NCBI GenBank assembly: GCA_022072225.1
Contig: JAJVIC010000006.1
Coordinates: forward strand, 73,785-137,784
Reading direction: 5' to 3'
Length of the DNA stretch: 64,000 nucleotides
Origin: Bacteroidia bacterium
GTDB lineage: Bacteria; Bacteroidota; Bacteroidia; SXHM01
Shown here: piece after piece, positions 2,163-47,411 of the stretch
How positions within the stretch are numbered: position 1 is the first letter of the stretch
How the letters are laid out: each line of letters opens with the position of its first letter
Program-made: the position numbers and the translations under genes
Notes under the pieces: model-generated
Told to the model about the DNA's origin: nothing
Database searches by the model: none
The model's input: the letters and a program-made list of their open reading frames with translations, nothing else

Positions 2163-2187
2163 TTCAATTATTTCACCTCCAATTACT

Positions 2188-5100
2188 CTAAATTTGAGTT
2201 GAAATTTTATATTTAATATTGACAAAGATGTGATATAACGAAGAGTCCGAGCCATGAATAGATTTACCAATTTTAATAGCTGAATTTTCAAACTGAAATT
2301 GTTTACTTACGTCCTCTACGAATTTCGAGTTAATCTCAAAACCAGTAGGAAATTTTAATTCCGGTATTGTAGTTTGGGCATATTCAATCCATTTTTTTTC
2401 AAAATTCTCTGACGGGTAAAGAGAATAAATTAAAACAATAAATGTTTTTCTTTGATGTGTATAATACGCAACGAGTTTTTCTATATGCGATTGAACTCGT
2501 GGTTTATCTCTTAAAATAAAAGCTTCACAGGTTATGAATGATTTTTTATTCCAATCCAGAATATCTAAGTCTATTTCTCCTGCGTCTTTCCCTGATTCAG
2601 AGAAGGCTTTTCTTGTTTGATCCTTTACGGTCCAGCCCCAAGTGGTTACCCTTGATTCGAGCGATAACTGAACAATATCGTTGTACTTATTTTCATCGGC
2701 TATTTCATCAATTGAATTAATTTTGTCTAACATTCTATTTACAGCCAACGCTACTTCGTTAGTAATAAATTCATTTAAATCAATTTTACCATTTAATACT
2801 TCTGGAAAAATACGAATCAATTTATGTGGAACACAATTATAAATCCGGTTATAATTAATGCGTAACTCTTCAATATTATCAATCCCGCTGATTTCATGTT
2901 TTAGATCAGAAATGAATTGAATTTCTGAAGCACCAGAATATTGATGATACCTTTCCGCTTTTTCCAATAGTATGTTTGCTTCATTTATCTTCTTTTCGGC
3001 TAAGAGTCTTTTTATTTTCATATCTAAAACACTGGGTAACATTTGATATGGAAGTTCAAGCTTTGAAAATTCTTCATCGAGTAATTCGTATTTCCCAAGA
3101 TGAAACAAAACAATAATCCTGTTGAGAATAAGGTTTTCACCTAATAAGGATAAATCAACATCTGGATTTTGATTCACATAAACATCCCATTCTTCAAATA
3201 CTTCAGAATATAAATTAGAATCATTTGAAGCTTGTTCTGCCATCTTCATTTTAGCAACCATTCGGTTCAATGCGAATGAAGGATATATGGGAATTTTTTT
3301 GGTTAAGTCATCAAAGATGAGATATGCACTTGCTGGATTAGTAATTAAACGAATTAATCCTCTATAAAACTGTTTGTAGTCTTGTGCTTTAAGTTCTTTC
3401 CTTCCATATGTATTATTATTTTCAGGCTCGTTGATTTTATCTAAGTCAGCTTCGTTATTATGATAATATGCAATTAATAATTTTGTGTTATAGAGCAGAT
3501 TCTCATACTGTTTATCTTTCCCTGAAATGTTTTTTTCCCAATAGGAAACAATCTCATCTATTTTAGCCATCAATTTTGGATGCTGAGTAATTTTTATTAG
3601 TACAGATTGTATCTCTATCCAATATGATTCTTCTAAAAACTTTTTAAGGTTTGAGGTTTCTACTTTTCTTAAAAGAATTTCTTTCATTCCTTCAGATGTG
3701 ACCAATTCAACAACCGTAAGTATCTTTATTATATTATTTGTACTGATAATAGCGTCAATGACTTTCTCTTTATTACTAAACCAATTAATTGCACTTGCTA
3801 TTTGTGGAAGTAAGGCTTCATTTTCTGAGTTATGAAATCCAAACTCTTTATTGTAATTAAACAAGTCTATGCGACCATCTGTTGAACTATCTACCGCATG
3901 AATCTTAATGTAGTCAATAATTTGTCCCTCTATTCTCAATTTAATCTCACTTAATTCCTTTTTGTCAAAACCATACGGAATAGAAGGAGATGTTAATTTT
4001 AGTAATACTTGAATGAGAACACCTATATGGGTTCTAATTTTATCAGCTACAAATTGGTTTTTTGAATGATACTTATCTTCGGTTCTGTCAATTTTAAAAT
4101 TAGGTTGTAAAAAATTATTCAGTTTACCTCGTTTAAATATGAAGTAGATAGGATATATCCAATCAATAAATTGCAATCGTTCAATTTTTTCGCTCCAAAG
4201 AGGTAATCCATTCTCTTCTTTTTTATCAAAAAAATTATACTTTTTTATTTCCTCTACTTCTATTCTTGACATATATGAAGTGAAAAAAGTATCTGTTAAG
4301 AAATAAATATTTGGAGCATGAAGGTTAAACTGACTTTTGTATTTCCAATGTGTTGTACATTTCATTAGCCAAGTAAGACCATCCCATTGTAACATTGGAA
4401 ATTGGATTGTTCCGTTATTATATAAGGGTTTAACATCAAGGTTGGCAAATAAGGCAATAAGCTCATTAAAGACATTAGGAATAAAATATTCAATGTTTTT
4501 ATTCCCGTAACTTTTATGATTATAGAGCAAAGAATTTTCTAGTAACATAATAACTACTTTTTCTTTTTGCTCTTTTTCTGCAATTAAAATATTATCTTCT
4601 TTTCTTGAATTTCTATTGTTTGGTATATCATATTTATCGGAATTGAGATGTCGATAAATTTGAAAAATCAATTTTGCAGCGGTTGCCTTATCTGATAGAA
4701 CAGATCGTATTGTATAAAGCGCAATTTCAATACACATTGACCATAGTGTTTCTGATCTTTCATGTTGTTGACCTTTCGGGAATGTGAAGTCACTAATAAT
4801 TTGAAACGAAAAGGATACAAAATCTTTATCGCATAGAAGGTGTGCAATTATTTCTCTTCTATAATATTTAATACTCTGTCTCATAAACCATAAAAGAATT
4901 GGTTTATTAGTACTTTGTCGTAATAATTCAGTTATTCTTTTGTATCTATATAGTATTGGATTATTTCCATCTTGTGTTTCTATTCTTTCTAACTCAAAGT
5001 CATGCTTTACTACTATCGTAACAAGGTGTCTTAGATTGCGCCTTGCATTTTGTGAATGCAAATATGTACTATGAGATTTTTCTTCCCATTTATTAAGGCA

Positions 5101-6240
5101 AGTATAAAGTTCAAAGACATCTGAATTATTTAAAGAAAAATCTTCAAGTTCAAATCTATTATTGTCAAGGAATGAAAAATCACGCGTTGAGTCTACATCA
5201 ATAATTACTTTTTTAAATTCATCTTCAATGCCGTTTATATCTGGTTCGTTTACTATAATATCATAAGCAGCATCGAGAAATCTTTTTTTTGCAATTTCAG
5301 TAGCATTCATTAATGGATCAGGTGAACTTTCCCAATAACTAACTTGATTAATAAAAAATCTAATTCTTTCAACATCTGAGTCATAATTACCATCACTACA
5401 GAGCAGTTCCCAGAAATAACTGGAAATTTTATCGTGTAGATTAGACCAATATCGCGGTTCTGAATTGTAAAAATTGACAGTAACATCATCTGCTCCGTTT
5501 GCTTTAATTATTCCTTCTTTAATAAATTTTTCAAAGGATGGAATGTCATAAATAGATTTAAAAGTATTTTGTATTCTAATAAACTCTGACTTCGTAATTA
5601 ATAATCCTTCCGTATCTTTCCTAAATTCATTATAAAATTCAGTAATAAATTTAAAATCCTTCCAGTAATCAAGATATGGTTTAAAGTACAAATCAATGTT
5701 TGAAAACTCAACTATATTATCTTTTTCAGATAACCAACTTGGTGCTTTACTATAAATGTTATTACTTTCGATTTTACTTGGGCTATGGGAGTTATGTGCA
5801 GCAATAGCATCATCCAAAATGTTTTTGTTAATTTTTCTTTCATTGTTTGGCAATGTTGGATAAAAAGCAGATAGAAATTCAAGCTCATTTTTAAGATTAA
5901 TGATTGATTTGAACCTATGTAAATGAGCCCTTACTGATTCTGAAATTTCAATAAACCCTAGAATATTTCGTAACCAAAAATTTTGAAACAATTTATTAGA
6001 ATCTATTATAGTAGAATGTGTTCTTTCATAGTATTCTTTGAATGAATTAAAATCTGCTAGTGAACATTCAAATTTCAGCGGCTGACATTTGTATAGTATT
6101 TGCGCCCAAAAGCGTGAAGCCTCCCAAATCAAATCGGCTTCAATAACTTTTTTATCAAAATGATGAGTAAACTCATCTATTGGGCTAGTTTTAATATAAT
6201 TAACAAGCTCTTGAATTTTTTCCTGTTGTTCATAATCCAT
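2188..6240 (-). CDS. Very large hypothetical protein (~1350 aa) with no recognisable catalytic motifs
   Basis: Single uninterrupted ORF. Probable start is the internal MDYEQQEKIQEL (ATG at 6240), because the first ATG of the ORF (6273) lies inside the upstream terminator hairpin. No P-loop, no HNH, no helicase motifs seen. Occupies the slot between the Septu-like pair and element A that is filled by Gabija in the other copy. Confidence 0.5.
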   Translation of the reverse strand: MDYEQQEKIQELVNYIKTSPIDEFTHHFDKKVIEADLIWEASRFWAQILYKCQPLKFECSLADFNSFKEYYERTHSTIIDSNKLFQNFWLRNILGFIEISESVRAHLHRFKSIINLKNELEFLSAFYPTLPNNERKINKNILDDAIAAHNSHSPSKIESNNIYSKAPSWLSEKDNIVEFSNIDLYFKPYLDYWKDFKFITEFYNEFRKDTEGLLITKSEFIRIQNTFKSIYDIPSFEKFIKEGIIKANGADDVTVNFYNSEPRYWSNLHDKISSYFWELLCSDGNYDSDVERIRFFINQVSYWESSPDPLMNATEIAKKRFLDAAYDIIVNEPDINGIEDEFKKVIIDVDSTRDFSFLDNNRFELEDFSLNNSDVFELYTCLNKWEEKSHSTYLHSQNARRNLRHLVTIVVKHDFELERIETQDGNNPILYRYKRITELLRQSTNKPILLWFMRQSIKYYRREIIAHLLCDKDFVSFSFQIISDFTFPKGQQHERSETLWSMCIEIALYTIRSVLSDKATAAKLIFQIYRHLNSDKYDIPNNRNSRKEDNILIAEKEQKEKVVIMLLENSLLYNHKSYGNKNIEYFIPNVFNELIALFANLDVKPLYNNGTIQFPMLQWDGLTWLMKCTTHWKYKSQFNLHAPNIYFLTDTFFTSYMSRIEVEEIKKYNFFDKKEENGLPLWSEKIERLQFIDWIYPIYFIFKRGKLNNFLQPNFKIDRTEDKYHSKNQFVADKIRTHIGVLIQVLLKLTSPSIPYGFDKKELSEIKLRIEGQIIDYIKIHAVDSSTDGRIDLFNYNKEFGFHNSENEALLPQIASAINWFSNKEKVIDAIISTNNIIKILTVVELVTSEGMKEILLRKVETSNLKKFLEESYWIEIQSVLIKITQHPKLMAKIDEIVSYWEKNISGKDKQYENLLYNTKLLIAYYHNNEADLDKINEPENNNTYGRKELKAQDYKQFYRGLIRLITNPASAYLIFDDLTKKIPIYPSFALNRMVAKMKMAEQASNDSNLYSEVFEEWDVYVNQNPDVDLSLLGENLILNRIIVLFHLGKYELLDEEFSKLELPYQMLPSVLDMKIKRLLAEKKINEANILLEKAERYHQYSGASEIQFISDLKHEISGIDNIEELRINYNRIYNCVPHKLIRIFPEVLNGKIDLNEFITNEVALAVNRMLDKINSIDEIADENKYNDIVQLSLESRVTTWGWTVKDQTRKAFSESGKDAGEIDLDILDWNKKSFITCEAFILRDKPRVQSHIEKLVAYYTHQRKTFIVLIYSLYPSENFEKKWIEYAQTTIPELKFPTGFEINSKFVEDVSKQFQFENSAIKIGKSIHGSDSSLYHIFVNIKYKISTQI

Positions 6241-6262
6241 AATACAAAAGTATATTTTAAAT

Positions 6263-6290
6263 AAAAAAACCATCTCAATATTCGAGATGG
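6263..6290 (-). terminator. Rho-independent terminator after element-A MTase operon
   Basis: CCATCTC-aatattc-GAGATGG hairpin (6270..6290) followed on the minus strand by a T7 run (6263..6269). Confidence 0.6.
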
Positions 6291-6305
6291 ATTTGAATGC
6301 TTTAC

Positions 6306-6956
6306 TTATCCCAATAAATCACATCCAAGGAAATTGCGTTGTACTTCACTTGCTGACGTAAGCACAGAGTACCCACCGGCTGCGGGATCAATCACCGTAT
6401 CACCAACATCAGTTACCGCTTCAATTAAACTTTTTTGTAATTCAATTGGTTTTGAATGTGCATGATTTTTCTTTGTAATCTTCTCATTCCAAACATCTGG
6501 TATATTGTGCACTTTCCAAATGCCTTTTATTCGAACTGGCAACTTCTGAAAAATAACAAGATACTCACTTTTCTTTCGTGTCCTGTAGCCCAGACCAATT
6601 CTCCCTTTATCCCATGTCACAAAATCAACTAACTTAAGATTAGTTCCTCCAACCAATGAATGAAGGCTATTCACCAACATATATTTATCCACCCATAACA
6701 TCATATGGCCGCTTGGTAAAAGAACGCGGTCAATTTCCTTGATGAACTTGGCAATCAAATCATCATTCATTTGAGGTAACTGAAACCGGTCTTTCAATTT
6801 CTTTCCTTCGTTTCCATATTTCAATTGGTCAAACAACCCGCGATACTGTGGGTCAAAAAAGACGAGCTTAATACTTTCTTTTGCAAGTTGCGAAAGAAGC
6901 GTTAAGCCATCCATTTTATTCCTGCTATTTAGTTTTGGTTGTGGGTTGTTTGACAC
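6306..6956 (-). CDS. Beta-class N4/N6 DNA methyltransferase (PF01555-like), atypical motif IV DPQY
   Basis: N-terminal FFDPQY (DPPY-like motif IV), central WDKGRIGLGY, C-terminal HSKPIELQKSLIEAVTDVGDTVIDPAAGGYSVLTSA (motif I). Motif order IV->I. Confidence 0.7.
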   Translation of the reverse strand: MSNNPQPKLNSRNKMDGLTLLSQLAKESIKLVFFDPQYRGLFDQLKYGNEGKKLKDRFQLPQMNDDLIAKFIKEIDRVLLPSGHMMLWVDKYMLVNSLHSLVGGTNLKLVDFVTWDKGRIGLGYRTRKKSEYLVIFQKLPVRIKGIWKVHNIPDVWNEKITKKNHAHSKPIELQKSLIEAVTDVGDTVIDPAAGGYSVLTSASEVQRNFLGCDLLG

Positions 6957-6977
6957 AAAGGTTTATGGTTATTACTT

Positions 6978-7514
6978 CTAAACTTGTCCGTTGTCTGCCA
7001 TTGAATAGTAACTTTCAGATGTAATGATGAGATGGTCGACAATGGAAACACCTATCATCTTTCCAAACGTGTGAAGGCTTGTAGTCAGTGAAATATCCTG
7101 AGATGATGGGGTTAAATTTCCGCTCGGGTGGTTATGACACAGAATGACATTTGTTGCATTCGCCATTAATGCTAACTGGAAGATTTCTTTTGTATTGACT
7201 CCTGTTCCTACAGTGGAACCGACAGAGATTTCTGAAACTCCTAAGACGTGTTGGGCTTGGGAAAGCAGCATGACTAAGAAAACTTCTTTGTAGTCCATTC
7301 TGTTTTCATCAATGAAAGCGCGAAAGACAGTTTCGGCATCACTGGACTTAACCACCTTAATCATTTCTGAAAGAACGGGGCGGGTGTAATGTATTTGGAT
7401 TTCGTTAATAGTATGTTTCATGTTTTTTGATTTTGGTGAATGAAATATTGAGACGGCATTTTGTGCCGATTGCGTTTGATAGAAAAAATGAAAGTCACTC
7501 ATGGTGACTTTCAT
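6978..7514 (-). CDS. RadC-like JAB/MPN domain protein
   Basis: HNHPSGNLTPSSQDISLT JAMM motif typical of RadC. Confidence 0.8.
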   Translation of the reverse strand: MKVTMSDFHFFYQTQSAQNAVSIFHSPKSKNMKHTINEIQIHYTRPVLSEMIKVVKSSDAETVFRAFIDENRMDYKEVFLVMLLSQAQHVLGVSEISVGSTVGTGVNTKEIFQLALMANATNVILCHNHPSGNLTPSSQDISLTTSLHTFGKMIGVSIVDHLIITSESYYSMADNGQV

Positions 7515-7515
7515 T

Positions 7516-8298
7516 TCAAAATAATTGCAGTTGGGATGGAGACGGTGGTTTTTCCTCTGTTTTTCTCTCTTCTGAAGGAAGTTGCAGTTTCACTTCTTGA
7601 AACTCTGCCTGCTGCGATTGCCAAATACTCGATGCCTCTTTTTCAATTTTGAATATTCCTAATGGGAAGATTGAAATTTTGTAGCCAAAGCGGAAATCAT
7701 TTCTGGCTAATGCATCTGCACAAATGACTTCGCCTCGAAGACCATTGAGGAATAGATTGATTGCAGCCATCTTCACACAGCGGGGGTCTATGTCTATGCC
7801 GTAATAGCTGTGCATGCATTTGCTTTCTTTCGCAAATGCCATAAGCATTCTGCCACTTCCACAGGACGGGTCCAATACATTGGCAGATTTTGTTTCTTCA
7901 CCACGTACCATTTCTGCCATCATCTGGCAGACATGAAAAGGGGTAAAGAATTGTCCGTTTCTGCCGTGACTTAATTCTTGCTCAAAGAATGCTCCTAATA
8001 AATCATTTTCCTGGGAATTGTCTTTGTTTTCCTCCATGTAGAGAATGAGTTCTGCGAATAGCTCAGGAAAGTATTTCAACGTTCCTAAGGCCTTATAAGG
8101 CTCTATGACGCTCATATACTCGTCCTCATAGTAGGATAGACCTGTCTCAGGATTACGGGTAACACATGCTATGCAGATAGTGAGGAAATCATCGAATACC
8201 TGCTCATAGCTGCTCCCGTATGCAGCCTTATCAAACACTGCTTTAAATGATTGTAAGGTTCGGACACCAGTTTTGGTTTCCTTGGATGTTGTTTTCAT
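7516..8298 (-). CDS. Gamma-class N6-adenine MTase-like protein, probably catalytically degenerate (no NPPF/Y)
   Basis: Motif X GQFFTP, motif I VLDPSCGSGRML, motif II/III YGIDID. At the expected motif IV position the sequence is SIFPLG instead of NPPF/Y. Protein ends after ~260 aa with a low-complexity tail. Confidence 0.6.
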   Translation of the reverse strand: MKTTSKETKTGVRTLQSFKAVFDKAAYGSSYEQVFDDFLTICIACVTRNPETGLSYYEDEYMSVIEPYKALGTLKYFPELFAELILYMEENKDNSQENDLLGAFFEQELSHGRNGQFFTPFHVCQMMAEMVRGEETKSANVLDPSCGSGRMLMAFAKESKCMHSYYGIDIDPRCVKMAAINLFLNGLRGEVICADALARNDFRFGYKISIFPLGIFKIEKEASSIWQSQQAEFQEVKLQLPSEERKTEEKPPSPSQLQLF

Positions 8299-8376
8299 GG
8301 CTCTTTGATTTTGTAATGAACTATTTTCAAAGAGTATAGACCCTATAACAAACAGTAAACAGAAGTCAAAATATGC

Positions 8377-9540
8377 CTAATAGGCAATTGTGGTAGCACT
8401 GAAAGGTCGTGAAGGTGTACCGTCAATCATGAGGGTTAAATAAATATGGTAGTTGGGTAAGTTCACGAAATCTTCAACGTCAAAAGTCGGGTACATCTTT
8501 TGCGACATCACTGAAGCATCACCGGTATCAATACGAAAAGAAATATGCGTTCCCACATTTCCTAATACCGCATTCAAAATATCCGGCTGTAATTGTTTCA
8601 TGTATTGATGCGCGAGTATCATCCCGACCTTATACTTTCTCAACTCCGAAAGCATATTCACCAATGAAAGCGTACTGAAGTTCTGAAATTCATCCAGGTA
8701 AATAAAGAACGGAACACGGTTTTCTTCTTCTATCGTTACACGGGAAAATGCTGCTGAAGAAAGTGAGGTAAGTAATAGCGATCCTAGGATTTGACACACA
8801 TCTTCACCGATTGCACCTTTTGACAGATTTACCAGTAATATCTTCTTTTCATCCATTATTTTTCGAAGTGAAATTTCTTCAGTGTTTTCAATAATGACAC
8901 GCTTAATTGCAGGATACGCAAGCAAGCCTCCTATCTTGTTTAGCACTGGTAAAACATCGTTATACATGTACCGGGGAAACTCTTTTTTCCAGAATACTTT
9001 TACATCTTCATTCACTACGTTTTCTAATACTTCACTTCGGAAAGACTTGTCATATATCATCTTGTTTATATCAGACATTTTCGCACTTGGCTGGTCTAAT
9101 AATGCTAAAAGTGTAAAGCGAAGAATATGTTCAAGCTTTACACCCCATGCCGTTGACCACAGTTTTTTAAAGACTTCGATAATACTTGAAGCAATGAGAG
9201 AACGTTTTTCATATGAGACTTTCCGAAGTGGATTGTATGCGAATGGCTGTTTCGGGTCTGTGATGTCCATGTAAATAACATCATCCTTTCTATTGTCAGG
9301 AATATGTTCATTTATTTCACTGACTAAATCTCCGTGAGGGTCGAGTAAACATATTCCTCTTCCGTTCCTGATGTCATTTAGGATTTTGGTTTTTAAGAGG
9401 GTTGTCTTGCCTGTTCCGGTTTTACCAATGATATAGGTATGTAAAAGTCTGTCGGCTTGTCTAATACCGAATGGGGTTCCTTTATTTCGCCAGCTTACAC
9501 GGGCGAAATAGAGTATGTCTTTGTTTCGAAATTCATCCAT
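8377..9540 (-). CDS. Soluble TraD/TrwB/HerA-FtsK superfamily ATPase
   Basis: Walker A GKTGTGKTT. LLDPHGD. Walker B FFIYLDEFQNF. ILAHQ motif. No TM segment. Paralogous to the core of the 1023-aa protein at 34664..37735. Confidence 0.65.
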   Translation of the reverse strand: MDEFRNKDILYFARVSWRNKGTPFGIRQADRLLHTYIIGKTGTGKTTLLKTKILNDIRNGRGICLLDPHGDLVSEINEHIPDNRKDDVIYMDITDPKQPFAYNPLRKVSYEKRSLIASSIIEVFKKLWSTAWGVKLEHILRFTLLALLDQPSAKMSDINKMIYDKSFRSEVLENVVNEDVKVFWKKEFPRYMYNDVLPVLNKIGGLLAYPAIKRVIIENTEEISLRKIMDEKKILLVNLSKGAIGEDVCQILGSLLLTSLSSAAFSRVTIEEENRVPFFIYLDEFQNFSTLSLVNMLSELRKYKVGMILAHQYMKQLQPDILNAVLGNVGTHISFRIDTGDASVMSQKMYPTFDVEDFVNLPNYHIYLTLMIDGTPSRPFSATTIAY

Positions 9541-9609
9541 TTCTCCATTATCCTAAAATGGGGAAATGGAAATAGAATGCAATTTTTGCCAAATGTGATA
9601 AGATGAAAC

Positions 9610-11328
9610 CTACTGCGATTTTTTATCACTCGAAAGTATTTTGCCAATCAGGCATGTTCTAATCGCGGTCAGCTTGGTGCACAAGGCGGGACAAGTGAAT
9701 AAAAAATCACTGTTCCAATTATGTTTTTCAATGGTATTTTTAGGTTCAAAGAGGGTTCTTTTTGCCATATATTCTACTTCACACTCTTTTACACATTGAT
9801 AAGTATTATCCGTTGTAATATAAAGGTTTTTGTCTTTTAGCGTTAGGTTCAAAGCTAATTTTGCAGCTATGTTATTTTTCGCAGAATCGTCACCGATTTT
9901 GAATTGTTTGAGTGAATGCAAAGCAAAATCAAAACTTTCTTTTATCGCATTTTCCAAATGCGAAAGATGTTTTGTAGTTGCTTCTATTTGTACTGCAACC
10001 TCCTTTAATTCCTTCAAAACTTCTTCTTTCAATGGCTTAATTTCCTCTGCGCTCATTTCACCATCTGCCCTCATTCTAATAAGCCCATTAAGCCTATTAA
10101 ATAGCTCGCTTTCGCGTTTCTTTAGTCGTGACGTCATTTGCGCTTGTTCGTGACTGCAACTGCTCTTAAGCTCTTTTAGAGCCTTTAATCCCCAAACATT
10201 GAAATCCTTACCTATGCTGATTTTCTCCAATTCTTTGGTAATGTTATTTTCAATTACCTCACGAGTTATTGAACCCTGACTACACGCTCCTTTGTTTTTT
10301 GTGCAGAGATAATAGACTTTGTTCACCATGCTTGGATTTTTCATTTTATAAAAATCAAGTTTACACTTAGGACAAACCGTTTTTGTAACAATGGAATATT
10401 TGAACTTACAGTTTGTGCAGATAGCTTGTAGTTTATGCATTGCGGTTACCCAGCCCTGACATTCCCCGCAGCGAATAAGTCCTCGATATGGAAAATATTT
10501 TTTTCTCTGAATAACAAATCTTTTTTTCTGCAAAATATTTTGGACTTCTGAGAATTCTTTAAGTGTTACCATTGGTTGATGATTTCCTTTAAATCTCTCT
10601 TTATCGAAGTGTTCGTTCCGCCAGTAAAAATGACCACAGTAAAATTCCTTATTGAATAGATTATAGAACATATTCTTGGTGTACTTTTTTCCTTTCTTAT
10701 CTCGCAACCCTAACCTGTCTGCTTCGCGCTCAATAGCCCGTATCGAGTATTTCCCGGTAAGCATTAAATCCCATAATTTCCGCACCACTGGAAATAATTC
10801 AGGATCGGGAATAATCTCGGTTAATCCCTTGCCACGCTCCTCTTTTGGAGCGTGCATATATCCTAATGGTGCTGTTCCAGGAAACCATCCGCGCTCTGCT
10901 TTTTTTCGCATACCACGTTTTACATCCACGCTTAAATCATTGGAGTACTGAATAGCCATGCCAAATTCCACCATGAGAATAATGACATTATCAGACGGCT
11001 TATAATCCCTGCCGTATGTATTAATGCTCTGAATTGCGCCTTGCTGCAATTGCCAAATGATTTGTCCGCCATCAATTGAATTACGGGCAAGGCGATTGAG
11101 TTTCCAGCATAAAATTCCTTGCGCTTCTCCTTTCTTGATGCGTTGCATCATTGCATTAAACTTTGGTCTGCCTGGGTATTTTGCGCTTTGTTCTTCACTG
11201 ATAATATCTGCAATCTGAAGGTGCTCCCGCTCTGCAATACGCTGCATCTCTGAAATCTGGTCATTGATGGATGCCATTTGTTTATCCTCTGTATCTGTTG
11301 ATTTTCTGGCATATAAAAAATATTTCAT
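9610..11328 (-). CDS. Large serine recombinase
   Basis: N-terminal resolvase motif FLYARKSTDTEDKQMASINDQ with catalytic Ser, and CWKLNRLARN. Recombinase domain and zinc ribbon CGECQG...CTNCK...CPKC. Confidence 0.85.
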   Translation of the reverse strand: MKYFLYARKSTDTEDKQMASINDQISEMQRIAEREHLQIADIISEEQSAKYPGRPKFNAMMQRIKKGEAQGILCWKLNRLARNSIDGGQIIWQLQQGAIQSINTYGRDYKPSDNVIILMVEFGMAIQYSNDLSVDVKRGMRKKAERGWFPGTAPLGYMHAPKEERGKGLTEIIPDPELFPVVRKLWDLMLTGKYSIRAIEREADRLGLRDKKGKKYTKNMFYNLFNKEFYCGHFYWRNEHFDKERFKGNHQPMVTLKEFSEVQNILQKKRFVIQRKKYFPYRGLIRCGECQGWVTAMHKLQAICTNCKFKYSIVTKTVCPKCKLDFYKMKNPSMVNKVYYLCTKNKGACSQGSITREVIENNITKELEKISIGKDFNVWGLKALKELKSSCSHEQAQMTSRLKKRESELFNRLNGLIRMRADGEMSAEEIKPLKEEVLKELKEVAVQIEATTKHLSHLENAIKESFDFALHSLKQFKIGDDSAKNNIAAKLALNLTLKDKNLYITTDNTYQCVKECEVEYMAKRTLFEPKNTIEKHNWNSDFLFTCPALCTKLTAIRTCLIGKILSSDKKSQ

Positions 11329-11396
11329 AAGGAATTCAAAAATTACCTGATAATCTATTGACTCGGATTCATACCAAATCCAAGCCTAAGAGTCAA

Positions 11397-11579
11397 TCAT
11401 TCGTTATCCACAAAGTATGCTCCGCTTAAATCAAGAATGGTTGCCATAAATTGAAGAAGATGTAAGCCCTTTTTGTATGCTTCGTCATCGGATAATTCAA
11501 TATTAAAATTCTTAAAATAAATAGCCTTGAATTCTTTTAGCTGTTCCGGTGAAAGCGTTGTTGGCATCTTAATATTCAT
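11397..11579 (-). CDS. Small hypothetical protein upstream of recombinase (60 aa)
   Basis: Conserved in copy B (54190..54459), which is longer at the C-terminus. Confidence 0.4.
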   Translation of the reverse strand: MNIKMPTTLSPEQLKEFKAIYFKNFNIELSDDEAYKKGLHLLQFMATILDLSGAYFVDNE

Positions 11580-11608
11580 CTATTCAGAATAAGAGGATAT
11601 TTATCAGA

Positions 11609-11661
11609 AAAACAGAAGCAAAAAATTGCCAATTTGCAGAGTCAAATAATCGCTTCTGTTT
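11609..11661. promoter_or_regulatory. Conserved inverted repeat AAAACAGAAGC-N32-GCTTCTGTTT in divergent promoter region
   Basis: Present nearly identically in copy B (~54487..54540), between the recombinase-side small ORF and the wH gene. Confidence 0.4.
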
Positions 11662-11691
11662 ATTCTCTTTTCATCCAAGGATAATTGCTGA

Positions 11692-12192
11692 ATGGATTAC
11701 AAATACACAACACATGTTCCCAATGAACTTTTTGATAAACACCTGCCACACCTCACGTTCGCGGAACTTAAAATCTTGCTGATTATCATTCGCCAAACAC
11801 AAGGGTGGGTAGACACCAAAACAGGCAAGCGAAAAGTTCGGGATAGGATTTCCCGAACAATGTTTATGGCTAAAACTAATCTTTCCAGACGCGTCATTTC
11901 ACATACCATTCAATCCCTTATTTCCAAAGAACTAATTACAGTAACTGACTATACTGGCGCTGAGCTTCCTGCACCTGATGAACGCAAAGGGCAATTCCTA
12001 TATTATTCATTGTATAGCTCAATACAGGGGCATTTAGGGGCACATACAAGGGCATTACCGTTACCTACCCCAGGGCATCCTGTGAACCATATCAAAAGAA
12101 AAAATAAAAAAGAAAATAAAACAAAAGAAACAGTTCAATCCATCGGAAATATTTTAGAAAAAATGTATAAAAAGTATTTCCATAAAAAGTAA
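11692..12192 (+). CDS. Winged-helix DNA-binding protein, replication-initiator-N-terminal-like
   Basis: FAELKILLIIIRQTQGW...RDRISRTMFMAKTNLSRRVISHTIQSLISKELI resembles RepA_N/phage replisome-organiser winged helix. Basic K-rich tail. Confidence 0.45.
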   Translation: MDYKYTTHVPNELFDKHLPHLTFAELKILLIIIRQTQGWVDTKTGKRKVRDRISRTMFMAKTNLSRRVISHTIQSLISKELITVTDYTGAELPAPDERKGQFLYYSLYSSIQGHLGAHTRALPLPTPGHPVNHIKRKNKKENKTKETVQSIGNILEKMYKKYFHKK

Positions 12193-12212
12193 TTGGTTGT
12201 TGAAAATCTGTT

Positions 12213-12256
12213 CGCAGGTGTGCCTCCTTTAAAAAGCACACCTGCGGTTTCGTTTC
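12213..12256 (+). terminator. Rho-independent terminator
   Basis: CGCAGGTGTGC-ctcctttaaaaa-GCACACCTGCG followed by GTTTCGTTTC. Conserved in copy B. Confidence 0.65.
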
Positions 12257-12421
12257 TCAAATAAACCGATTGCGTATTTTTAGTGCACACAATTTCCCCA
12301 CGAAATGAACGGACTTGTTACCAAACGGTAAGTAACCGCGAAAAAAATTTGCCAAAGTGGCATATTCTGTATTCTGTTTTTCCTTAAGTCGGTTTCGTAT
12401 CATTTACTTATTACTAAGTAA

Positions 12422-12793
12422 TTGAAAAATATTATGAAACATAATGTGAACTATTTGCGAACCTATCGCAAGCAAACAGAGATAACGCAAGCCGACATGG
12501 CTTTTTTATTACACAAGGAAGACAACTCAAATCTTTCACGGTGTGAGAAAGGAAAACGTGCGCCCAGTGTCCATATGATTATTGTGTATAGTTTACTATT
12601 TAACACTCCGGTGATTTCATTTTTCACCAATCAACGGGACCTGATTAAACAACGGCTCATTGAGCGAATAAAAGAATTAATGGAGCAATTAAAAATGGAC
12701 GACCCGACTGAAAATATTATATCGAGAATTGAGTATTTGCAAAAGGCGCTTATTAGATTAACAGAGGAAAAAACATATGAAAAACAACAATAA
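12422..12793 (+). CDS. HTH (XRE-like) transcriptional regulator
   Basis: QTEITQADMAFLLHKEDNSNLSRCEKGKRAPSVHMI helix-turn-helix. Coiled-coil-like C-terminus. Confidence 0.55.
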   Translation: MKNIMKHNVNYLRTYRKQTEITQADMAFLLHKEDNSNLSRCEKGKRAPSVHMIIVYSLLFNTPVISFFTNQRDLIKQRLIERIKELMEQLKMDDPTENIISRIEYLQKALIRLTEEKTYEKQQ

Positions 12794-13274
12794 AGAAATG
12801 GTTCTTGCACTATATCCTAATCGGCAAGGGTTCGGGTATGCATTCTTGGAAAAGCTGACCGAACCAAGGGATTGTGGAGTTGTTACGATTCGCCCTATAA
12901 GTAATCAAAAGTGCTTGGAGCGAATAAAAAAATTCATTGAGTATTATCAGCCAACTCTTATTCTCCTTGAAGACCCTGAAGGTAAATCTTCCTGGAAAAG
13001 TTTGCGTGTGAAAAAATTGATACACAGTATTACTGATTTTTGCCAACTCAACGACATTACGGTAAGACGTTATACACGAGAACAAATCCGATTCGTGTTT
13101 TCGGAATTTAAAGTGAAATCAAAGTACGAGATTGCTGCGCAGATAATAAAATGGTTACCACAGTTCAAAAACAAAATGCCCGAAGTACGAAAGCCTTGGA
13201 TGTGTCAGGATTACAACATGGTTATGTTTGATGCGATTTCACTTGCGATTACTCATTTTTATCTAGATAATTAA
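12777..13274 (+). CDS. Hypothetical protein (165 aa)
   Basis: 17-nt overlap with the upstream HTH gene. Conserved in copy B. Last gene of the repeat unit. Confidence 0.45.
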   Translation: MKNNNKEMVLALYPNRQGFGYAFLEKLTEPRDCGVVTIRPISNQKCLERIKKFIEYYQPTLILLEDPEGKSSWKSLRVKKLIHSITDFCQLNDITVRRYTREQIRFVFSEFKVKSKYEIAAQIIKWLPQFKNKMPEVRKPWMCQDYNMVMFDAISLAITHFYLDN

Positions 13275-13338
13275 ATGTCTAACTAACTATTTGATTAGTA
13301 GAAGATAATCGTAACTTTATAATCTCTAATAATTATTA

Positions 13339-14469
13339 ATGCTTACTGCGCATTTTCCTAATCGAATTCTGTTTGGTATTGGGATCATCAACCGTATCAA
13401 AGAAGAATTATTATTACTTGATGGATGTAAAAGTATTTTACTGATCACAAGTCCAGGTATGCCAAGTCGTATTTTTTTTCCTGAAATACTAAAGACAATT
13501 CAATCAGTTGTAAAGAATGTTCAAGTAATAGCAACTCTCACTCCTGAACCAGATGATAAAATGATTGAAATGATTTTTGGACAAATAGAATTAAAAAATG
13601 TAGATGCAGTAATAGGAGTTGGGGGAGGCAGTGTTATGGATGCTGCAAAATTAATTTCTTGTCGCGTTGTTAATAATGAACCGTTTGTTGAAATGGCCGG
13701 AAGTAATTTGGTTAAGCGTAAAGGCCCACCTATCCTATTAATACCAACGGTTGCAGGAAGTGGTAGTGAGGTTACTCATGAAGCTGTTCTGACTGATAAT
13801 GATTCTGGAACAAGATATGCCCTAAAGGATTTCAAATTGTTATCTCATTGCTCAATCATAGATCCATCTCTTTTAACTACTTGTCCTAAGGTTTTAATTG
13901 CTACATCAGGAATTGATGCTTTTATACATGCAGTTGAATCAATCGGTAATTTAAATGCCAATGTTTTTTCAAATTTAAATGGATTACAAGCGATTAAATC
14001 TTTAAAAGAAGGATTGGTTGAGGCTATTTGTGATGTTACAAATGAAAGAGCCTTAAATCAAATATCCTTGGGCTCTATGTTTGCTGGGTTCGCTTTTGCA
14101 GCAACAGGAACAGCAGCAATTCATGCATGTGGTTATCCGCTAACTACAATACACAAAATACCACATGGACAGGCCAATGCTGTAATGTTACCATACGTTA
14201 TTAAATATAATCTCCAAACAGGTAATTACTATGATTCAATAACGGAATTATGGGGTACTAAAAATTTACCATTATCTCTTTTGCAACTTGTAAATGAAAT
14301 AGGTTTAAAAACAAATCTAAAATCTATGGGGATTAAAATAGATGAGTTAGAGAAACTGGCTGAAATCGCCTTTCTTGATAAACGTCATTTATCTGTTAAT
14401 CCAACAGATATTTCGTTAGATATATTGAAAAATATCTTTAAAAACGCTTGGGAAGGAAATTTAGATTGA
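13339..14469 (+). CDS. Iron-containing alcohol dehydrogenase family protein
   Basis: AVIGVGGGSVMDAAK signature (GGGSxxDxAK) and metal-binding His residues downstream. Confidence 0.85.
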   Translation: MLTAHFPNRILFGIGIINRIKEELLLLDGCKSILLITSPGMPSRIFFPEILKTIQSVVKNVQVIATLTPEPDDKMIEMIFGQIELKNVDAVIGVGGGSVMDAAKLISCRVVNNEPFVEMAGSNLVKRKGPPILLIPTVAGSGSEVTHEAVLTDNDSGTRYALKDFKLLSHCSIIDPSLLTTCPKVLIATSGIDAFIHAVESIGNLNANVFSNLNGLQAIKSLKEGLVEAICDVTNERALNQISLGSMFAGFAFAATGTAAIHACGYPLTTIHKIPHGQANAVMLPYVIKYNLQTGNYYDSITELWGTKNLPLSLLQLVNEIGLKTNLKSMGIKIDELEKLAEIAFLDKRHLSVNPTDISLDILKNIFKNAWEGNLD

Positions 14470-14513
14470 ATAACTATAACTTTCTGAAAGCTTATACTCG
14501 TTTCTTAAATATT

Positions 14514-15374
14514 TTAAAAAGCAACTAATAGTATACCAATAAAAATCATTGTTATTCCAGCAATTTTAAATGACAATCCTTTACGTTCTTTCAATTTCCA
14601 AATACCCCAAACTGAAATAAGGACTGCGGCCGATTCTCTTAAAGGAGATATTAATGCAACAGGCGCAATAGACAGAGAAAATAGAACTAATTGGTAGGTA
14701 GCAATGATAAAGATACCTATAATGGCTGTTTTTGCAAATGAACCTTTTTTCGGATTAATTTCTCTTCCTGTGTACATTATAAAATACCGCCTGATAGGAA
14801 TAAAACCTATGAGACAAAGTGCGGTGAAGAAATATTTAAGTGCTCCAAAATAAATGGGATTCGTATATTCTAAACCTATCTTATCTATAATGGTGTATGA
14901 AGCAATGAAAACACCTGTAAGGAGTGCCGGGATAAATCCTTTTTTGCCTTCTAATCTCGCTCTTCTTACAAACCAAATTCCAAAAATAAGTAAGAGTATA
15001 CCTGCCACTTGATATAGAGTCACATTTTCTTTTAGCAATAATATACCAAAAAAAAAGGATAACACTGGTGCTATCCCTCTCGCAATCGGATATACCACCG
15101 ACAATTCTCCATGTCTATAACTATGCGACAAGAAAAAGAAGTACCCCAATTCAGCAATCCCGGAAAGCATCCCATAGAAAATTGCCGTAGAGGAAATGGG
15201 TGGCATTTGTTCAACAATCCAGTAGGTCATAATAAGTGGTATGAATAATATTACTCCTATGCCTATTGCTTTTGTTGAAACATCTAACGGATCGTCAGCT
15301 GATTGCAATAAAATATTCCAACTAACATGTAAAATTGCAGATATAAAGATGAGAATGATCGCAGAAGAAAGCAT
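14514..15374 (-). CDS. DMT/EamA-like polytopic membrane transporter
   Basis: About 10 hydrophobic helices and a duplicated EamA-like architecture. Confidence 0.6.
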   Translation of the reverse strand: MLSSAIILIFISAILHVSWNILLQSADDPLDVSTKAIGIGVILFIPLIMTYWIVEQMPPISSTAIFYGMLSGIAELGYFFFLSHSYRHGELSVVYPIARGIAPVLSFFFGILLLKENVTLYQVAGILLLIFGIWFVRRARLEGKKGFIPALLTGVFIASYTIIDKIGLEYTNPIYFGALKYFFTALCLIGFIPIRRYFIMYTGREINPKKGSFAKTAIIGIFIIATYQLVLFSLSIAPVALISPLRESAAVLISVWGIWKLKERKGLSFKIAGITMIFIGILLVAF

Positions 15375-15474
15375 ACATAAAGTATATCAAAGCAGGGAAA
15401 AAACCACTATTTAATTTAGGCATCAATTTTGTTATCTTATTAGGTATCAACTCTTCCTACCTTTTCATAATGAG

Positions 15475-16401
15475 ATGATAAAAAGATTAAAATTCTTTGA
15501 TGAAATTTCATTGGGAAATGAAGTGGTGTCTGAATTGCGTTCATTGCAATCGTTTAACGATAATTACAAAATCATCCAGAGCTATAATGCTCCACATATT
15601 AGAGACGCAGCAATTTCAATAAAAAAAACCTTTTCAAACTCTGATAATGGAGTATTGATTAAAATTCAGCCGCAATTATCTAATCTTGAATTGAGGTCTT
15701 TAGTTTGGCTTCTTTCATGCAATATAGGGAAACCAATTGTTCAAGATGAATCAGGGACTCAGATTATGTATGTATATGATAGGAATAGATCAAATTCAAT
15801 TTTCAATGGAGCAAGGTATCACCAAACTCACCAAGGCGGAGCATTACATACAGACCAGGGCGGAGTCAAACATACAAAGAATGTTAATGATCCAGAGCCA
15901 ATTGATTTTTTAGTTTTAGGTTGCATACAGCAAGGATTAATTGGTGGAGAAACTATTTTGGTTCATGCTGATGAATTATACCGTGAACTTTTAAAATTTC
16001 CCATAGTAATTGATATTTTAAAAGGACAATTTTTTTGGGAATTACGGGGGCAATCTCAAAATTATTATGATGGGCCAATTTTAACCATTGGAAACGATGG
16101 TAAGCCTAGATTTCGTTATATTAGGCCATATATGGAATCAGCGTACACACGTCTTGGAAAAAAAATAAAACCTCTTGAAACGTGGGCCTTGGACGTATTA
16201 GACTCTCTATTGGAAAGTTCTATAATCCAAAATAGGATTCTATTAAATAGAGGTGAAATTCTAATTTTCAGAAACGATCGATTTGTACATGGTCGTACTT
16301 CTTTTACAGATGATTGGAGTGATAATCCAGCGGTAGAAAATAATATTGATTTACTTACCAATAAAAGATTATTCCAACGAATTTGGCTCTCAGAAAAATG
16401 A
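15475..16401 (+). CDS. TauD/TfdA-family Fe(II)/2-oxoglutarate dioxygenase
   Basis: HTDQ (HxD) and C-terminal LIFRNDRFVHGRTSF motif. Confidence 0.65.
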   Translation: MIKRLKFFDEISLGNEVVSELRSLQSFNDNYKIIQSYNAPHIRDAAISIKKTFSNSDNGVLIKIQPQLSNLELRSLVWLLSCNIGKPIVQDESGTQIMYVYDRNRSNSIFNGARYHQTHQGGALHTDQGGVKHTKNVNDPEPIDFLVLGCIQQGLIGGETILVHADELYRELLKFPIVIDILKGQFFWELRGQSQNYYDGPILTIGNDGKPRFRYIRPYMESAYTRLGKKIKPLETWALDVLDSLLESSIIQNRILLNRGEILIFRNDRFVHGRTSFTDDWSDNPAVENNIDLLTNKRLFQRIWLSEK

Positions 16402-16443
16402 CTAAAGAATAAATTTTGACTTAGGATTTATTATACGAGAGTA

Positions 16444-17643
16444 TCAGTTATGATAAATCAGGTTGTTTATTGCTTTTAAGATAATTAAAAAATTCTTATA
16501 CGCAGTTTCATTTTCCAATGTCTCATTAGTAAGCATTAGGCATAATGAATCATCGAATAATAACTCATGCTTCAATTTATAAATTTCCTCACTACTTAGA
16601 GATGTATTTATTCCATCTAATGAATCTCCTATTCTTGTTGCAATCACACATTTTTTATTGTGTTTTTTAGAAGATGTCCTAAGCAAATCTTCAACCTGAA
16701 GAATGTCTTTTTTATAAAGGGATAACTGAACTGCCAAATCTCCTCTAGCTATCATTATCCCATCTGTAACAGCAGATATTTCATCAATATTTTCTATACC
16801 TCTCATCGTTTCTATTTTTGCCATTAGTTTAGCTTTTGGGGGCAAGGAAAGCCTTTTCATTTCTTCAATGCTTTTCTTAGTATTACAGAATGAAAGGCAA
16901 ATCCACTCAAAATATTCTAATGAGCCATTAGAATTTAATTTATTGATTAAGTCAATTGTTTCAATCGGTATAGATTCTACCGTGTCGTATAAACCAGCAA
17001 TATCAATACCTCTATAATTATAAATCATGCAGTCGCTTAAAGCTTCACAATAGATTGCAATTTCATCATGTTTTATAATCTCAAATTGACTCCAACCATC
17101 AGATATTAAAAGAAATTTTGCATCTTTTTTTAATGGTATAGTTTCTTTATAAGGAATTACTTTTGTGTTTTGAAGTCTTTTATCTTTTATGATATCTAAG
17201 TTAGAATCGGGCACTAAAGCTATAATCTCTCCTTTTAATATTTCTAATTCATCTCTGCCAGATAATAAATCCAAATGAGAAATCCGGACTTTAGGCCCTG
17301 ATAAATCAATAGCTAATGATATGTTCTGCTCACCGATTATCTTCTTCACCCTCACAACTTCATCGTGAATCTCTTTCTCATTTTTGTATTTAGAAGAACT
17401 AATACGAATAGTTTCAATACACTGATGACTTAACATTTTATTAATTGAATCGTCTGATAAACTAGGTCTGATTGTTAACCAAAAGTTAAAAGATTTTCCA
17501 GACGCACTTTTTTGTAGTGGACGGTGTGTATCAAATATATCAATTGGAATAGGTAAGCTTTTAGAATCCCATATTACCTTGGGTTTGTGACGAGAAACAC
17601 TTAAATTAGGTTTATGTAAATATTGATTACTCATTATTATCAA
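16444..17643 (-). CDS. Pyruvate-kinase-like barrel-domain protein (no C-terminal regulatory domain)
   Basis: AIDLSGPKVRISHLD, KIETMRGIENIDEI, GIMIARGDLAVQLS match PK active-site motifs. Only 399 aa. Confidence 0.6.
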   Translation of the reverse strand: MIIMSNQYLHKPNLSVSRHKPKVIWDSKSLPIPIDIFDTHRPLQKSASGKSFNFWLTIRPSLSDDSINKMLSHQCIETIRISSSKYKNEKEIHDEVVRVKKIIGEQNISLAIDLSGPKVRISHLDLLSGRDELEILKGEIIALVPDSNLDIIKDKRLQNTKVIPYKETIPLKKDAKFLLISDGWSQFEIIKHDEIAIYCEALSDCMIYNYRGIDIAGLYDTVESIPIETIDLINKLNSNGSLEYFEWICLSFCNTKKSIEEMKRLSLPPKAKLMAKIETMRGIENIDEISAVTDGIMIARGDLAVQLSLYKKDILQVEDLLRTSSKKHNKKCVIATRIGDSLDGINTSLSSEEIYKLKHELLFDDSLCLMLTNETLENETAYKNFLIILKAINNLIYHN

Positions 17644-17645
17644 TT

Positions 17646-18344: not shown

Positions 18345-18414
18345 TCGTATGTAAATATTACTATTGCATTATTGAAAGAAGCGAATGCCTTTTATCATTC
18401 TATTCTGGTAGCAT

Positions 18415-19494: not shown

Positions 19495-19500
19495 TCGGTA

Positions 19501-20091: not shown

Positions 20092-20097
20092 AATTTA

Positions 20098-20754: not shown

Positions 20755-20773
20755 TGGTAAATAGTTTTGGTAA

Positions 20774-22766: not shown

Positions 22767-22778
22767 ATTTATAGGTTT

Positions 22779-23507: not shown

Positions 23508-23723
23508 TTTGATTTGGGTTTTTAAGTTTGGTCCCAAAGGTATGAAGTTTATCTGAAAACTGAAATTAATTTCAGTTTTCAGATAAACTAAAAACATAAT
23601 CGCTTGATTATGACCAAGAAAAAATAATGACCCAACATATAATTAGATCAAAAAGTTCTACGATATATTTTTTGTCACGTAACTTGATTACTGTGACTTT
23701 AAATAATTCTTAAGATATAAGTC

Positions 23724-24103: not shown

Positions 24104-24116
24104 GTTTCCAAAGATA

Positions 24117-34655: not shown

Positions 34656-34663
34656 TCACATCA

Positions 34664-47409: not shown

Positions 47410-47411
47410 GC

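Follow-up and report, generated by a model that had tools for sequence, protein, structure and literature searches.

Introduction

A conserved backbone around slots of interchangeable defence systems is characteristic of P2/P4 satellites and of SXT integrative and conjugative elements (ICEs), and pSAM2 and SLP1 represent small integrative replicative elements that require a single FtsK/TraB-type DNA translocase for their transfer and have int, xis, rep, tra and a regulator. The staphylococcal cassette chromosome (SCC, SCCmec) and ECC are islands moved by large serine recombinases (LSRs), which often lie in tandem arrays and carry anti-phage cargo (PMC11470126). Integrative and mobilizable elements (IMEs) may use a site-specific serine integrase, insert into a dispensable gene, frequently form tandems and sometimes bring their own coupling protein; their tandem accretion with chimeric attI junctions has been described, and serine-recombinase IMEs are reported in the same review only in Clostridia and other Firmicutes (PMC5704250). 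Pipolins, too, serve as defence platforms (PMC11551731). In the present study, we analysed a stretch of 64,000 nt (hereafter the window) from the metagenome-assembled genome (MAG) of a Bacteroidia bacterium (assembly GCA_022072225.1, contig JAJVIC010000006.1, positions 73,785 to 137,784), which holds two diverged copies, A and B, of a nine-gene segment of about 7 kb (hereafter the module).

A preliminary description took each copy for a small serine-recombinase element that had been inserted next to a Septu-like gene pair. On balance, we consider that the two 7-kb segments are probably what two diverged islands of one family, each of about 40 kb and arranged head to tail, share as a backbone module. 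The element is of an ordinary kind but has a form that is apparently undescribed, and full-text literature searches yielded no description of the island family of the window.

Two copies of a nine-gene module

Comparison of the window with itself by blastn confirmed the two copies of about 7 kb, with 6251-13264 of copy A corresponding to 49111-56145 of copy B. Two strong blocks make up the repeat (6251-9880 against 49111-52736, 85.2% over 3640 nt; 11608-13264 against 54488-56145, 92.9%), and the sole match between them is a weak one (10884-11328 against 53743-54187, 69%). Each copy has nine open reading frames (ORFs), whose order and orientation are the same in A and B, as had been proposed. 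The features are as follows, with the coordinates of copy A first (HTH, helix-turn-helix).

6251..6300, minus strand: left module edge, terminator-like hairpin (6270-6290) 3' of g1, aligned with 49111-49160
6306..6956, minus strand: g1, N4/N6 DNA methyltransferase without partner nuclease (PF01555; PADLOC MTase_II 6.8e-78)
6978..7514, minus strand: g2, RadC-like JAB-domain protein (PF04002, 1.4e-35)
7516..8298, minus strand: g3, N6 adenine methyltransferase (PF02384; PADLOC mad2 2.2e-17)
8377..9540, minus strand: g4, 387-aa TraD/VirD4/TrwB-like P-loop ATPase (PF10412)
9610..11328, minus strand: g5, large serine recombinase SRa, 572 aa (Resolvase and Recombinase domains)
11397..11579, minus strand: g6, 60-aa ORF upstream of SRa, inside the low-identity block 9644-11614
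11692..12192, plus strand: g7, phage replication protein O-like winged-helix protein (PF04492 below cut-off; PHROG "replication initiation O-like" 5.4e-14)
12213-12246, no strand assigned: GC-rich inverted repeat in the g7-g8 spacer, perfect 11-nt arms, also at 55091-55125
12422..12793, plus strand: g8, XRE-type HTH regulator (PF01381)
12777..13274, plus strand: g9, RuvC-fold protein of 165 aa, last gene of the module, without Pfam match
49111..56155: module B as a whole
49163-49813, 49835-50371, 50373-51155, 51234-52397, 52466-54193 and 54190-54459, minus strand: g1, g2, g3, g4, SRb and g6b of module B
54571-55071, 55300-55674 and 55658-56155, plus strand: g7, g8 and g9 of module B

An amino acid identity of 85-95% had been stated for all nine pairs. 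The range is right for seven of them (86.5-95.4%), namely the leftward genes g1 to g4 (95.4, 86.5, 94.2 and 93.3%) and the rightward genes g7 to g9 (92.2, 95.0 and 92.6%), but not for the recombinases SRa and SRb (47.7%) or the small ORF upstream of them (38% over 50 aa), which is indeed 60 aa long in copy A and 89 aa in copy B. Sliding identity is 80-96% at 6300-9640, falls to 40-70% at 9644-11614 and returns to 88-100% at 11614-13264; within the recombinases, the catalytic domain is about 68% identical and the recombinase domain about 35%. Since the drop is confined to 9644-11614, a cassette of about 2 kb, comprising the LSR and its small ORF, has been swapped.

That the copies are not recent duplicates had been rightly recognized. 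Synonymous divergence (dS) of the module gene pairs amounts to 0.25-1.0, with saturation for the LSR pair, and that of the ptuAB pair (0.39-0.72) lies inside this range, while the ratio of nonsynonymous to synonymous divergence (dN/dS) is 0.03-0.17 for all gene pairs. The module copies are thus old, and both are under purifying selection.

The LSR assignments rest on domain content and length. SRa matches PF00239 (4.3e-19) and PF07508 (2.1e-12), with a zinc ribbon at 24.2 bits against a cut-off of 25.3; the motif YARKST with the nucleophilic serine is found in both SRa and SRb, and the lengths of the three LSRs of the window (572, 575 and 508 aa), together with their domains, are those of large serine recombinases (450-700 aa). 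For g4, the matches to PF10412, to the NCBIfam TraD/VirD4-like family and to CedD all fall under the curated cut-offs, and there is a PADLOC match to mad8 and a weak match to TrwB in PDB. The g6 product, which matched no family in Pfam, NCBIfam and PHROG scans, is a candidate directionality factor or regulator of the LSR. As for g9, an AlphaFold model built with the alignment of its 66 homologues reached a pLDDT of 92, and its top Foldseek matches are RuvC structures (7xhj, 4ld0 and 1hjr; TM 0.65-0.73). Read against the known motifs, this alignment places a near-invariant tyrosine (Tyr13) where RuvC has its first catalytic aspartate, and Asp152 in the last helix is the only near-invariant acidic residue, so that the four-residue catalytic set of RuvC is incomplete. 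On the strength of this model and the tyrosine in place of the first aspartate, g9 is RuvC-like in fold but probably not a standard resolvase.

Scans of the module proteins against Pfam, NCBIfam and PHROGs gave no relaxase family. Beyond the TraD/VirD4-like ATPases, the window contains no genes for mating-pair formation or a type IV secretion system (T4SS), nor does it contain capsid or other phage structural genes, terminase genes or genes for packaging redirection; the PHROG matches are limited to integrase, methylases, regulators and the RepO-like protein, and g9 has no match in IMG/VR. Neither tRNA genes nor Rfam families were found in the 64 kb. Iterons for the RepO-like protein were sought, and only short two-copy repeats turned up.

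Bacteroidota promoters follow a consensus other than the sigma-70 type. A sigma-70 scan gave fewer matches than expected from shuffled sequence, and its consensus may not be that of the host. As for the conserved intergenic terminators previously noted, conserved hairpins are present: the one at 6270-6290 (49125-49157 in copy B) has been maintained through compensatory changes, and a second conserved hairpin lies at 12350-12362 and 55228-55240. Separately, a contig of 3,758 nt from a Logan assembly carries a third variant of the module LSR and HTH gene (P0069, P0330), at least 90% identical to copy A.

Extent of the repeated unit

The blocks of the window that recur outside the module are listed below.

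2..2164, plus strand: PtuAB-like pair of copy A, ATPase cut by the window start, HNH-like protein at 1188-2162
23724..24380, minus strand: two small ORFs and an 87-aa HTH gene, upstream of SR3
24460..25986, plus strand: SR3, second LSR type and third LSR in the window, 508 aa (Pfam; PF00239 4.6e-29)
25961..25985, plus strand: attP-type site GCAATGAACGTA-CA-TGGTTGCGTTG, spanning the SR3 stop and the HTH3 start
25974..26426, plus strand: HTH3, double-HTH regulator (Pfam), first gene after the att site
33402..38216, minus strand: Mrr_cat protein (417 aa), 1023-aa DUF8128 and TraD-like ATPase, 162-aa protein
40421..43418, plus strand: PtuAB-like pair of copy B, 676 aa and 324 aa, 88-89% aa identical to copy A
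62611..64000, minus strand: beginning of another backbone block, with two small ORFs and a 449-aa ORF; beyond the window come an 87-aa HTH gene and SR3'

A PtuAB-like pair does stand near each copy of the module, and the two pairs are 87.5% identical in nucleotides (2-2164 against 41258-43420), but Septu is not the model that they fit best. The best PADLOC match is the candidate system PDC-M62 (3e-108 for A, 2.2e-80 for B), which fits far better than the Septu models PtuA (1.9e-18) and PtuB (1.3e-9), and the Pfam HNH match stays below its cut-off.

Further blocks recur at a distance. In locus tags, the region from ptuB of copy A to g9 of copy B runs from POELPBGB_01362 to 01414 on a MAG contig of 337,103 bp. 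On this same contig, POELPBGB_01352 is a 95% paralogue of the copy B Mrr_cat protein (01394), and POELPBGB_01353 a 64% paralogue of the 1023-aa ATPase (01395); both paralogues are placed 8-9 genes upstream of ptuA of copy A (01361). The block at 23724-24380 recurs at 62611-62998 and just beyond the window end, where a Logan contig (L081) extends the sequence by 658 nt (to a length of 64658); its part 24117-24393 is 85% identical in nucleotides to 8318-8594 of that contig. SR3 (01387) and SR3' (POELPBGB_01425), the latter just beyond the window end, share 56% of their amino acids.

Altogether, five colinear blocks are common to both copies: Mrr_cat and ATPase, the PDC-M62 pair, the module, the small ORFs with the HTH gene, and the SR3-type LSR. 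The period is about 40-43 kb (42.9 kb from g9 end to g9 end). Unit 1 reads ... Mrr'/ATPase' ... ptuAB-A, 1350-aa ORF, module A, Fe-ADH to PRTase, small ORFs, HTH, SR3-att-HTH3, and unit 2 reads ... Mrr/ATPase, 162-aa protein, GmrSD, ptuAB-B, gajBA-xseBA, module B, radical SAM to His phosphatase, small ORFs, 449-aa ORF, HTH, SR3' .... Because colinear blocks lie on both sides of the module, the repeated unit measures about 40 kb, of which the 7-kb segment forms a single backbone block, set between cargo slots; the proposal of a 7-kb unit inserted beside a pre-existing Septu-like pair is therefore not supported. The alternative first considered alongside it, an ancient duplication from ptuAB to the recombinase whose middle was later replaced, came closer than the 7-kb element, yet the segment that it invokes is too small. 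Likewise, the statement that the flanks are unrelated and the similarity ends sharply is correct for the immediate flanks, but homology resumes beyond the variable segments and the left edge is fuzzy.

The island would accordingly be ordered as Mrr-like nuclease with the TraD-like ATPase of about 1000 aa, PDC-M62 pair, module, small ORFs with HTH and SR3, and double-HTH gene, with cargo slots between the blocks that differ by copy (the 1350-aa ORF or XseAB plus Gabija; GmrSD; two unrelated metabolic operons).

Further observations concern the large ATPases. A third paralogue of about 1000 aa (POELPBGB_01342, 56%) is found beside a SIR2 and HerA pair (L111), near an XOO_2897-type deaminase and a pYEATS protein, in a defence-rich stretch 20 genes upstream of the window. 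The 1023-aa protein itself, which adjoins the Mrr_cat protein, has an apparent C-terminal PD-(D/E)xK motif (by eye), and its best PADLOC match is mad8 of MADS, the system whose mad2 and mad8 are also matched by g3 and g4 of the module. The 1023-aa protein and Mrr_cat could belong to defence rather than transfer.

SR3 and the comM insertions of its relatives

SR3 belongs to a family with more than 5000 matches at 54-66% identity. The 3' end of its closest relative (P0076, 89%, on contig L109) adjoins the N-terminal part of a truncated comM, with housekeeping genes beyond it, and in another contig (L086) an SR3-like LSR likewise abuts an N-terminal comM fragment. The DNA homology between L109 and the window ends 9 nt before the SR3 stop codon. 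On a further contig from the same sample (L110), a C-terminal comM fragment directly abuts a double-HTH gene with 67% amino acid identity to HTH3, and the pair of 162-aa protein and ATPase there is 77% identical in nucleotides to that of the window. The comM fragments of L109 and L110 are complementary, covering ComM residues 1-354 and 340-440+.

Reading these junctions gives attB as GCAGGGG-CA-GGGGTTCAT, in a comM region that includes GCAGGGGCAGGGGTTCAT, attL as ...GCAGGGG-CA-TGGTTGCGTTGC (L110) and attR as GCAACGCACCAA-CA-GGGGTTCAT (L109). The reconstructed attP, GCAACGCACCAA-CA-TGGTTGCGTTGC, is an imperfect palindrome with 10/12 dyad symmetry. Its counterpart between SR3 and HTH3 is the sole attP-type site in the window, with a symmetry of 6/12; its left arm matches the element arm of the L109 attR, and its right arm is identical to the element arm of the L110 attL. 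Many SR3 homologues are SR-HTH fusions, which argues that the contiguity of SR3 and HTH3 is the unrecombined arrangement. The attP-type junction and the SR3-type relatives inserted in comM point to two mobile islands rather than to duplication in situ.

SR3 was also considered as a mini-element of 2.3 kb, which was not supported, as there is no second att arm near 23600-23720. In the ORF-free stretch 26838-27270, three pieces are 71-93% identical in nucleotides to the L110 island, and this stretch may represent a conserved RNA or regulatory element near the left end of the island. Furthermore, an intact comM copy of 512 aa is part of the relative island that interrupts comM (L110 19073-20611 and 22777-23081; L109 5725-6795); this copy is about 80-90% identical to the disrupted host halves, as if compensating for the interrupted gene.

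Relatives of the module and the question of an autonomous 7-kb element

More than 500 relatives of the g4 ATPase occur in species-representative genomes; of the best 80, with 42-48% identity, nearly all belong to Patescibacteria (candidate phyla radiation, CPR). These CPR relatives (L002-L080) are mostly proteins of about 1000 aa, like the 1023-aa ATPase of the window, and their loci have only the ATPase in common with the module and no shared neighbours. A fuller set is found in a Ferruginibacter MAG (L001), with g9, g8, g7, the small ORF, the LSR, CBASS and DUF4238 genes, the ATPase and RadC; here a CBASS pair (SMODS cyclase and patatin) and DUF4238 (6104-9878) sit inside the module, between LSR and ATPase. 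In L086, the LSR, the HTH gene and g9 are followed by SLATT and TIR-NACHT genes, and this module stands upstream of the SR3-like LSR, at a distance of 5.3 kb that contains no comM fragment. Partial sets comprise an LSR with a 395-aa ATPase (43%) on a Sulfitobacter plasmid and an HTH gene with a g9-like gene on Bradyrhizobium plasmids. Plasmid and phage collections held no near-identical DNA.

In Bacteroidota metagenomes, relatives of the backbone include thousands of SR3-type LSRs, about 1,900 ATPases of about 1000 aa and 66 RuvC-fold proteins. Contig sizes of 94,675, 80,634 and 10,709 nt are common to the match lists of g9 and SR3, and those of SR3 and the ATPase of about 1000 aa share at least nine equal contig sizes. 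Judging from these comparisons, the module is a recurrent, modular backbone of what appears to be a mobile element carrying defence genes. The notion of small integrative elements associated with defence survives to this extent: the serine-recombinase family travels with defence genes, namely CBASS, TIR-NACHT/SLATT and SymE in the relatives.

It may nevertheless be asked whether the module is an autonomous integrative (mobilizable) element of about 7 kb, with its own LSR, that was inserted twice beside pre-existing Septu-like pairs. The gene set looks complete for this purpose, with LSR, small ORF, replication-like protein, regulator and coupling-protein-like ATPase, and the right edge coincides with the end of g9, where the last 10 nt of g9 in copy B fit the family consensus and copy A alone diverges, at 13264. 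Two relatives speak for it as well: L085 has a compact set of about 6 kb (RadC, DUF7222, ATPase, LSR, small ORF, RepO, HTH and g9) beside a giant CUB protein, and in L087 the ATPase, LSR, N6 methylase, HTH and g9 are reordered and accompanied by SymE and ArdC; a sulfate transporter comes next, aspartyl-tRNA synthetase lies two genes (about 5.6 kb) away, and there is no SR3 within 10 kb downstream. Against it, conserved blocks extend colinearly to either side of the module, with relative position and orientation unchanged; the immediate flanks are non-homologous, hence the copies lack a common target site; similarity fades gradually over the terminator hairpin at the left edge; and the last 50 nt or so of the right end are near-identical although the recombinase domains of the two LSRs are only about 35% identical. 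A search for imperfect inverted-repeat att sites at the four boundaries had been suggested, and none of the sequences found there is att-like: no att site for SRa or SRb was found at the module edges, and the search for inverted or direct repeats linking the four edges, right-end sequence included, returned only chance-level AT-rich matches. We therefore consider such an element improbable in the window.

Origin and behaviour of the proposed tandem islands

A different concern is whether the tandem is partly a product of assembly, in which strain variants of one island, or a circular episome, were threaded through shared repeats. The source is a MAG, the order SR3-attP-HTH3 is the junction expected of a circular form, and the Logan assembly of SRR10609163, which is identical to the window wherever present, breaks at every repeat, so that the long-range order finds no support there. 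However, the copies differ by 7-15% and are hence resolvable, and this same assembly supports copy-specific junctions, in which single-nucleotide differences (5 discriminating positions in 81 nt) tie the A-type g9 end to Fe-ADH and the B-type g9 end to the radical SAM gene; the 1350-aa cargo with A-type ends is present, too, on a contig of 4.2 kb. We doubt this explanation as much as the previous one.

We return to the two tandem islands of about 40 kb. Beyond the anatomy of the sequence, every mechanistic step proposed here is what we infer. The SR3-type LSR would integrate and excise the island at the 2-bp CA core, and the excised circle might be replicated by way of the RepO-like protein. 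The TraD-like ATPases would pass DNA to a helper conjugation machine or translocate DNA themselves, with the methyltransferases and RadC shielding the incoming DNA; transfer is suggested by these ATPases, RadC, the orphan methylases and, in one relative, ArdC. Cargo exchange would proceed by homologous recombination in the conserved flanks. The module LSR could offer a second integration route, mark a nested element or have a resolution function.

The strongly diverged recombinases (48% and 56%) may permit two relatives to lie side by side, and the tandem itself could have arisen in two ways. Either a second island accreted at an att site of the first, which would leave a chimeric attI, or an incoming circle recombined with a resident island in one homologous crossover, in which case the array would retain a native attP. 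The crossover is mildly favoured by the right att arm, since the relative with an 89% LSR has an identical one; accretion is mildly favoured by the less symmetric site of the window (6/12).

Several points weigh against the island interpretation. The compact versions in L085 and L087 suggest that the module may also move on its own, and co-occurrence by equal contig size is indirect. The window does not reach the outer ends of the array, where attL and attR of the two islands would be expected, and for the left part of copy A the evidence consists of locus tags and protein identities and not of DNA. The left att arm of the window differs at 4/14 positions from that of the 89%-identical relative, the two comM ends of which stem from different contigs of one sample. 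Neither a relaxase nor an oriT was identified, which makes transfer a conjecture, and no empty site or circle was found. As to the empty site, exact look-ups of the flanking proteins gave the same sample only, and the JGI metagenome relatives of the radical SAM protein are only 46-47% identical and without shared context.

By analogy with the Streptomyces TraB plasmids, one might go further and regard the island as a self-sufficient, T4SS-independent element, with an LSR-excised circle, RepO-like replication and transfer by a single TraD/HerA-like translocase. We think this quite improbable. If it were true, the exchangeable LSR cassettes would provide alternative integration routes and allow related islands to be stacked in tandem.

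Finally, an in-situ tandem segmental duplication of the chromosome, followed by divergence and partial replacement without mobility, would explain the common orientation, the tandem layout and the retained block order but is very improbable, given a mosaic that is hard to reach in place (dS 0.25-1.0, recombinase pairs at 48% and 56%, ATPase pair at 64%), the attP-type site at the unit boundary and the same block types inserted in comM in unrelated metagenomes.

Cargo of the two proposed islands

The cargo slots of the window contain the following.

2188..6240, minus strand: cargo slot of copy A, a single 1350-aa ORF in the same slot as Gabija plus XseAB in copy B
13339..23597, no strand assigned: variable segment 1, after module A, ten metabolic-looking genes (Pfam), read as island cargo
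38534..40348, minus strand: GmrSD type IV restriction enzyme, cargo (PF03235 and PF07510)
43515..49065, minus strand: cargo slot of copy B, xseA-xseB-gajA-gajB (Exonuc_VII_L, Exonuc_VII_S, GajA, GajB)
56164..62588, no strand assigned: variable segment 2, after module B, seven genes (Pfam)

The cargo between the PDC-M62 pair and the module does differ between the copies, as first noted. The 1350-aa ORF of copy A, a candidate for a new defence gene, matched no family in Pfam, PADLOC or PHROGs. In copy B, GajA (5.1e-283) and GajB (1.8e-229) are strong PADLOC matches with overlapping genes, and Gabija is certain. In xseA-xseB-gajA-gajB, successive genes overlap by 20 nt, stand 2 nt apart and overlap by 8 nt, forming one tight operon; a full-text literature search gave no description of Gabija together with exonuclease VII subunits. 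Although the frame of xseA stays open as far as 49065, it has no start codon (ATG, GTG or TTG) before 48768. We rejected an insertion of module B into the 5' end of a housekeeping xseA because of the tight operon and because there is no room for the missing 5' end beyond the module.

The segments to the right of modules A and B are unrelated. Segment 1 encodes Fe-ADH, EamA, TauD, PK-like, isochorismatase, HAD, PfkB, LacI and PRTase proteins, and segment 2 two radical SAM proteins, a glyoxalase, a short-chain dehydrogenase/reductase (SDR), HhH-GPD, a WYL regulator and a His phosphatase. Within segment 1, an operon at 18415-23597 consists of genes for an isochorismatase-family hydrolase, a HAD phosphatase, a PfkB kinase, a LacI regulator and a phosphoribosyltransferase, and one may speculate that it resembles a nucleoside/nicotinamide salvage set carried on the island. 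A perfect palindrome of 38 nt, TTATCTGAAAACTGAAATT|AATTTCAGTTTTCAGATAA, lies at 23549-23586, upstream of the phosphoribosyltransferase gene, and an independent Logan contig stops within it, at 23575. GmrSD has no paralogue at 90% or more in the genome, and the interval between HTH3 and Mrr_cat holds MORN and pentapeptide proteins and proteins without assignment.

Comparison with described elements

If the island interpretation is right, the unit of analysis shifts: defence genes would be cargo in stackable islands of about 40 kb, and not chromosomal hotspots visited by a small element. The island family would then be a handle for new defence genes in a poorly studied phylum, and the attP-type site of the window, together with the comM attB of the relatives, would supply natural pairs of LSRs and att sites, and thus candidate integrases.

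Compared with P2/P4 satellites, SXT ICEs and pipolins, the islands have slots in common, but the backbone is another one, the recombinase is of the serine and not the tyrosine type, and PolB, phage and T4SS genes are missing. From pSAM2 and SLP1 they differ in phylum and in their ATPase, which is of the TraD/VirD4/TrwB type and not FtsK-like. With IMEs they share the serine integrase, the insertion into a gene, the tandem with related elements and the coupling-protein-like ATPase; unlike IMEs, they showed neither relaxase nor oriT, and the units of about 40 kb consist mostly of defence and metabolic cargo. The likeness to SCC and ECC lies in LSR-moved islands without conjugation or phage genes of their own, in the tandem array and in the defence cargo. 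Unlike in SCC, the LSRs are not Ccr (48-64 bits with NCBIfam CcrA/B/C against cut-offs of 700-900), the target in relatives of the window island is comM and not rlmH, each unit has two unlinked LSRs, the phylum is Bacteroidota, and TraD-like ATPases, RepO-like and RuvC-fold proteins are present in the window islands. Taken together, the closest analogues are the SCC/ECC cassettes, followed by serine-recombinase IMEs with tandem accretion.

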